64,000 bases of DNA, from sequence record MW286157.1; one strand, given 5' to 3'. Of the stretch, positions 28,417 through 29,101 are shown piece by piece. Origin of the DNA: Escherichia phage vB_EcoM-BECP11. Under the pieces are notes generated by a model. That model saw only the letters and a list, made by a program, of their open reading frames with translations. It made no database searches and was not told where the DNA came from. Position 1 is the first letter of the stretch; every line of letters begins with the position of its first letter. The translations under genes and the position numbers were made by a program.

Positions 28417-28646
28417 TGTCTGAACAAACTATTGAACAAAAACTGTCTGCTGAAATCGTAACTCTGAAATCTCGCATTCTTGATACGCAGGACCAAGCGG
28501 CTCGTCTGATGGAAGAATCTAAAATTCTGCAAGGAACTTTGGCTGAAATTGCTCGCGCAGTAGGTATTACCGGCGATACTATTAAAGTTGAAGAAATCGT
28601 TGAAGCTGTCAAGAATCTTACTGCTGAATCTGCTGATGAAGAATAA
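28416..28646 (+). CDS. 57A: tail fibre assembly chaperone gp57A
   Basis: 76 aa, TAATG coupled to gene 1, T4 synteny. Confidence 0.8.
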
Positions 28647-29101
28647 TGGAATTTAAAGACTTTTCAACGGGTCTTTATGTAGCAGCTAAGTTTTCAGAAT
28701 TAACACTTGATGCGCTGGAAGAACTTCAGCGCTCTTTACGTGTTCCTAATCCAGTTCCTAGAGAAAAAATTCATTCGACTATATGTTATTCGAGAGTAAA
28801 TGTTCCATATGTTCCATCAAGCGGAAGTTTTGAAGTAGCTTCTTCTGGACATTTAGAAGTATGGAAAACACAAGATGGATCTACTCTTGTACTTGTACTA
28901 GATTCTGAATATTTGCGCTGTCGACACATGTATGCGCGGGCACTAGGTGCTACACATGATTTTGATGATTACACACCGCATATAACATTGTCTTATAATG
29001 TTGGGCCCTTATCATTTAGCGGTGATGTACAAATTCCGGTCGTATTAGATCGTGAATACAAAGAGCCTCTTAAATTCGATTGGGCAGATGATTTAAAATA
29101 A
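28646..29101 (+). CDS. 57B: gp57B, anti-CBASS phosphodiesterase Acb1
   Basis: 151 aa, position between 57A and ipI as T4 57B (152 aa), which is the described Acb1. Confidence 0.8.

Follow-up and report, generated by a model that had tools for sequence, protein, structure and literature searches.

An orthologue of T4 acb1 (gene 57B) with intact catalytic motifs in Escherichia phage vB_EcoM-BECP11, encoding a predicted anti-CBASS cyclic-oligonucleotide phosphodiesterase

Gene organization of the acb1 locus

The DNA analyzed here (hereafter the window) is a stretch of 64,000 nucleotides from Escherichia phage vB_EcoM-BECP11 (MW286157.1). An open reading frame of 151 codons plus stop occupies positions 28646..29101 of the plus strand; it is the orthologue of T4 gene 57B, now called acb1, as defined by the reading frame itself, its identity to the T4 protein, and Pfam and PDB matches. 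The earlier note had described a gene of 151 aa between 57A and ipI, and the Pfam assignments of the neighbors agree. Upstream lie gene 1 (dNMP kinase, 27691-28416, Pfam E 4e-106) and gene 57A (28416..28646, plus strand), which encodes the tail-fiber chaperone or assembly helper (GP57, PF17594, E 4e-51); downstream lies ipI (29174..29458, plus strand), whose product, internal protein I (IPI_T4, PF11634, E 1e-51), is 91% identical to T4 IpI. The start codon given in the open reading frame list is the ATG at 28646, which overlaps the TAA stop codon of 57A as TAATG (sequence context …GAAGAATAATGG…). Gene 57A encodes 76 aa here and 80 aa in T4; its product is identical to T4 gp57A at 74 of 75 residues over the aligned part and has a shorter C-terminal acidic tail than in T4.

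The local order 1 - 57A - 57B - ipI is that of T4 (NC_000866 annotation), and the order 3 - 1 - 57A - 57B is kept in the window, in T4 and in the relatives from eight other genera, that is, in all relatives fetched. The gene 3' of acb1 varies among the relatives from these eight genera, and 57A is always directly upstream. Over the 1043 bases from 57A to ipI the window has the same sequence as Shigella phage ESh32 (ON528742.1, Tequatrovirus; 100% identity) and shares 95-99% identity with some 150 other T4-like phages. Two antisense open reading frames inside acb1, of 30 and 47 aa, were dismissed as nothing supports them. Scanning with a terminator consensus gave no hit 3' of acb1, and a search of 27000-30500 against Rfam with a permissive E-value threshold gave no match.

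Several other features were recorded in this part of the window. A cassette of about 87 nt occurs twice, at 29102-29188 and 29465-29549, immediately 3' of the acb1 and ipI stop codons, and each copy runs from TTTCACAAAGTTGTTTACAT through a hairpin to a ribosome-binding site and ATG. Sequence identity in the two repeat segments is 81% and 76%; both copies have a sigma70-like site TTTACA-17-TACTAT and fold with z-scores of -4.8 and -3.5. The hairpin stems differ between the copies with pairing kept (GAUGAGGUAGUGA…UUACCUCAUC versus UAGGGU…ACCCUA), and the first copy is conserved in T4; from its sequence the pair looks like a duplicated T4 early-promoter/leader module. Further downstream, a cluster of 11 tRNA genes (Gln, Leu, Gly, Pro, Ser, Thr, Met, Tyr, Asn, His and Arg) spans 30490-31510. 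The same place in T4 holds 8 tRNAs and the homing endonuclease gene segB, which is absent here; the tRNAs extra to T4 are Met(CAT), Tyr, Asn and His. The ESh32 annotation of the cluster lists just 10 tRNAs, with His missing. A published PCR primer for the acb1 region of phage Bas35, 5'-cacatattacagaagctggattgc (PMC13577387), would anneal on this phage as well, since it matches exactly at 28303-28326, in the 3' end of gene 1.

Identity of the 57B product as Acb1

T4 gene 57B was identified as the anti-CBASS gene acb1 through activity-guided fractionation by Hobbs et al. 2022, who also solved the 2H-phosphoesterase structure of Acb1 (PMC9117128). The alignment to T4 gp57B (NP_049750.1) that the earlier note had proposed as a check gives 99% identity, with 150 of 151 residues identical over the full length and no gaps; at the DNA level the two genes differ by six synonymous changes and one non-synonymous change. 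Homologs are present in 1471 phage records. Because of this identity to T4, the mostly synonymous differences and the number of records with homologs, the frame, judged by sequence comparison, is a real gene and not a chance reading frame.

The family assignment points the same way. The Pfam model for the anti-CBASS protein Acb1 (PF23474) scores 200.8 bits against a cutoff of 27 (E 1.1e-59), with residues 8-149 of the protein covering profile positions 1-144 of 144, and the Acb1 of Erwinia phage FBB1 in PDB 7T26 is matched with E 1.3e-61. An NCBIfam scan returned no family for the acb1 or the acb2 protein. A single-sequence AlphaFold2 model of the 151 aa protein (mean pLDDT 37.2, pTM 0.29) was unusable, so the 2H phosphoesterase fold rests on homology to 7T26. 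FBB1 Acb1, whose 2H fold and bound 3'3'-cGAMP are seen in PDB 7T26/7T27, shares 67% identity with the window protein over 141 aligned residues, and at this level of identity to a 1.1 Å crystal structure the window protein very probably has the same fold. Both HxT motifs, the tyrosine, the aromatic residues and the C-terminal tryptophan of FBB1 Acb1 align with the window protein; it differs in coming from another phage and host, in one extra residue following the W/F74 strand and in having Phe at the position of T4 W74. The entries 9Q2G/9Q2Y ("Anti-CBASS protein Acb1", 165 aa) carry the same family name, with marginal sequence similarity to the window protein: the match over both HxT motifs is weak (E 0.004).

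Public names suggest another function, that of an RNA ligase or a LigT-type RNA 2',3'-cyclic phosphodiesterase acting on RNA ends, for example in tRNA repair. PHROG 755 is labeled "RNA ligase", many records, RefSeq included, are named "RNA ligase" or "RNA 2',3'-cyclic phosphodiesterase", and LigT and 2',5' RNA ligase enzymes (PF13563) do have the superfamily fold and the HxT/HxT chemistry of Acb1 (PMC9117128). There is also a weak Pfam 2_5_RNA_ligase2 match (E 0.073). However, the LigT-family model PF13563 reaches 13.5 bits, below its cutoff of 27, against the 200.8 bits of the Acb1 model. The substrates of the T4 orthologue are cyclic oligonucleotides and not RNA ends: that nearly identical protein cleaves them biochemically and counters CBASS genetically, and "RNA ligase" is an inherited name derived from the superfamily and not a tested function. 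We therefore regard a role on RNA ends as very improbable. The gene is almost certainly the 57B/acb1 orthologue of a Tequatrovirus, encoding an anti-CBASS cyclic-oligonucleotide 2H phosphoesterase that acts beside Acb2. The claim that the 57B position equals Acb1 is thus borne out by the identity to T4, the full-length match to the Pfam Acb1 model and the experiment on T4 57B (PMC9117128). The label "anti-CBASS nuclease" needs amending: it is apt as regards an anti-CBASS enzyme and wrong as regards a general nuclease, the protein being a cyclic-oligonucleotide phosphodiesterase.

Conservation of functional residues

In T4 Acb1 the catalytic HxT/HxT tetrad consists of H44, T46, H113 and T115, the bases are stacked by Y12, W74, F107 and W147, the adenine N6 is contacted by the adenine-specific residue E141, and residues 145-152 form a C-terminal lid (PMC9117128). 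Mapping by script shows that all nine of the residues named in that study are kept here, at the T4 number minus one: Y11, H43, T45, W73, F106, H112, T114, E140 and W146. Both HxT motifs, whose histidines had been singled out earlier for inspection, are present on the plus strand: H43-S44-T45 is encoded at 28772..28780 (CAT TCG ACT), and H112-I113-T114 at 28979..28987 (CAT ATA ACA). The lid as defined in PMC9117128 corresponds to residues 144-151, including W146, and is encoded at 29075..29098 of the same strand. The window protein was aligned with those of T4, FBB1 and one homolog from each of eight other genera (Mosigvirus, Kanagawavirus, Karamvirus, Muldoonvirus, Krischvirus, Tulanevirus, Lazarusvirus and Schizotequatrovirus); G9, Y11, H43, T45, H112 and T114 do not vary across these 11 sequences, and E140 and W146 hardly vary.

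Differences from T4 and the F144 lid allele

T4 Acb1 thus shares with the window protein the catalytic tetrad, the ligand contacts and the position of its gene between 57A and ipI, and it differs in being one residue longer at the N-terminus and in having L145 in place of Phe; the adjoining T4 57A product is 4 aa longer. The difference in length lies at the gene junction. T4 57B starts with ATGATG, overlapping the TGA stop codon of T4 57A, whereas the TAA stop codon of 57A in the window removes the first ATG, so that Acb1 has 151 aa here and 152 in the T4 RefSeq entry. In X03016, an early T4 record, 57B was given a length of 151 aa.

The sole amino-acid change is F144 (TTC), at T4 L145 (CTC), the first residue of a lid that is otherwise identical to that of T4. 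Leu occupies this column in 9 of the 11 aligned homologs. Of 454 phage records whose protein is at least 99% identical, 19 have exactly the F144 sequence, and this recurrence marks F144, on sequence grounds, as an established minor allele and not a sequencing oddity. The substitution may affect the rate or the substrate range of the enzyme, because its site is the start of the lid that closes over the ligand and the column is mostly Leu.

It might accordingly be asked whether L145F leaves acb1 in place with its function weakened or retuned. Inactivation of acb1 does occur in nature and under selection (a nonsense mutation in Bas43, escapers of Bas35; PMC13577387), Panoptes guard systems are known to select for natural loss of the gene, and the substituted column is usually Leu. 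Yet the exchange of Leu for Phe is conservative and keeps the residue hydrophobic, the frame is intact, all catalytic and ligand-contact residues are retained, the allele recurs in 19 independent phage records, and the rest of the gene differs from T4 by purely synonymous changes. An impaired or altered enzyme is on this balance highly unlikely. A more specific form of the idea, to which we give equally little credence, is that the F144 allele, common to about 19 Tequatroviruses, might shift the range of substrates that Acb1 cleaves, such that the enzyme would, for example, cleave the Panoptes decoys cA3 and 2',3'-c-di-AMP less and keep its anti-CBASS activity; if true, the allele would offer phages a natural way out of the Acb1/Panoptes dilemma. 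The preferred reading remains that of an orthologue working as the T4 enzyme does.

The companion gene acb2

A second anti-CBASS gene lies at 39411..39677 on the plus strand. It is acb2, the orthologue of T4 vs.4, and encodes a cyclic-oligonucleotide sponge of 88 aa as defined by PDB 7UQ2 and Pfam PF24729. The product is identical to T4 Vs.4 in 7UQ2 at 86 of 88 residues (E 3.6e-56) and matches the Acb2_Tad1_hairpin family (PF24729) with E 7.8e-20. Residues Y8 and F82 of Vs.4/Acb2 are reportedly required for cyclic-dinucleotide binding (PMC12657218), and the 7UQ2 alignment places both in the protein encoded here. As an aside, the two differences from T4 Vs.4 turn L44/N46 into F/S, within …WEAFDSCED…. 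The Acb2 candidate that had been put forward at 39411 is therefore a real gene start and corresponds to T4 Vs.4/Acb2, and the suggestion that the phage carries both a degrader and a sponge holds, with acb1 at 28646-29101 and acb2 at 39411-39677. The pairing is not new, since T4 has already been stated to carry Acb1 and Acb2 (PMC10312549; PMC12657218).

Proposed role in infection

The substrate range and mechanism of T4 Acb1 and the phenotype of its deletion mutant (delta-acb1) on CBASS hosts were established experimentally (PMC9117128), and in an independent transposon screen T4 57B/acb1 was dispensable on K-12 and depleted on a CBASS-expressing host (bioRxiv 10.1101/2025.11.20.689424). By analogy with these T4 experiments we propose the following route for the window protein. 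Given its identity with the characterized T4 enzyme, Acb1 would be a small, metal-independent 2H phosphoesterase, with a U-shaped pocket expected to bind those CBASS cyclic di- and trinucleotides in which one or more of the nucleosides is adenosine, such as 3'3'-cGAMP, cUA, cAAA and others. The C-terminal lid would close over the ligand and the adenosine would be strained, after which the HxT/HxT tetrad would cut the 3'-5' bond 3' of the adenosine via a 2',3'-cyclic phosphate intermediate to give linear products, for example GpAp. Depletion of the second messenger by Acb1 would keep the CBASS effectors off and prevent abortive infection. The sponge Acb2/Vs.4, whose gene lies some 10 kb further downstream, is expected to act together with Acb1 in this. 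According to a transcriptome compilation, T4 57B and vs.4 have mainly middle/late expression.

Significance

The gene is already known, being a nearly identical orthologue of an experimentally characterized gene in a group of phages that has been studied very thoroughly. That T4 57B is Acb1 and that Acb1 and Acb2 co-occur in T4 have both been published, so the analysis adds no new biology. Its practical value is the correction of annotation, as public records mostly say "hypothetical" or "RNA ligase". ESh32, for instance, annotates the identical acb1 reading frame as "hypothetical protein", and of the 19 records with the identical protein, 18 call it "hypothetical protein" or "RNA ligase" and PP355091.1 alone calls it "anti-CBASS protein Acb1". 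The naming reflects a systematic annotation lag for a characterized anti-defense gene.

An intact acb1 is not automatic in T-even phages, since the knock-outs of Bas43 and Bas35 exist (PMC13577387); in the window the gene is intact. A second practical use is host-range prediction: a phage in which both acb1 and acb2 are intact should escape most CBASS systems. Panoptes guard systems can in turn be triggered by Acb1 and Acb2 (PMC13577387), and recent work suggests that a phage carrying acb1 and acb2 may be detectable by Panoptes, which senses cyclic-nucleotide depletion.
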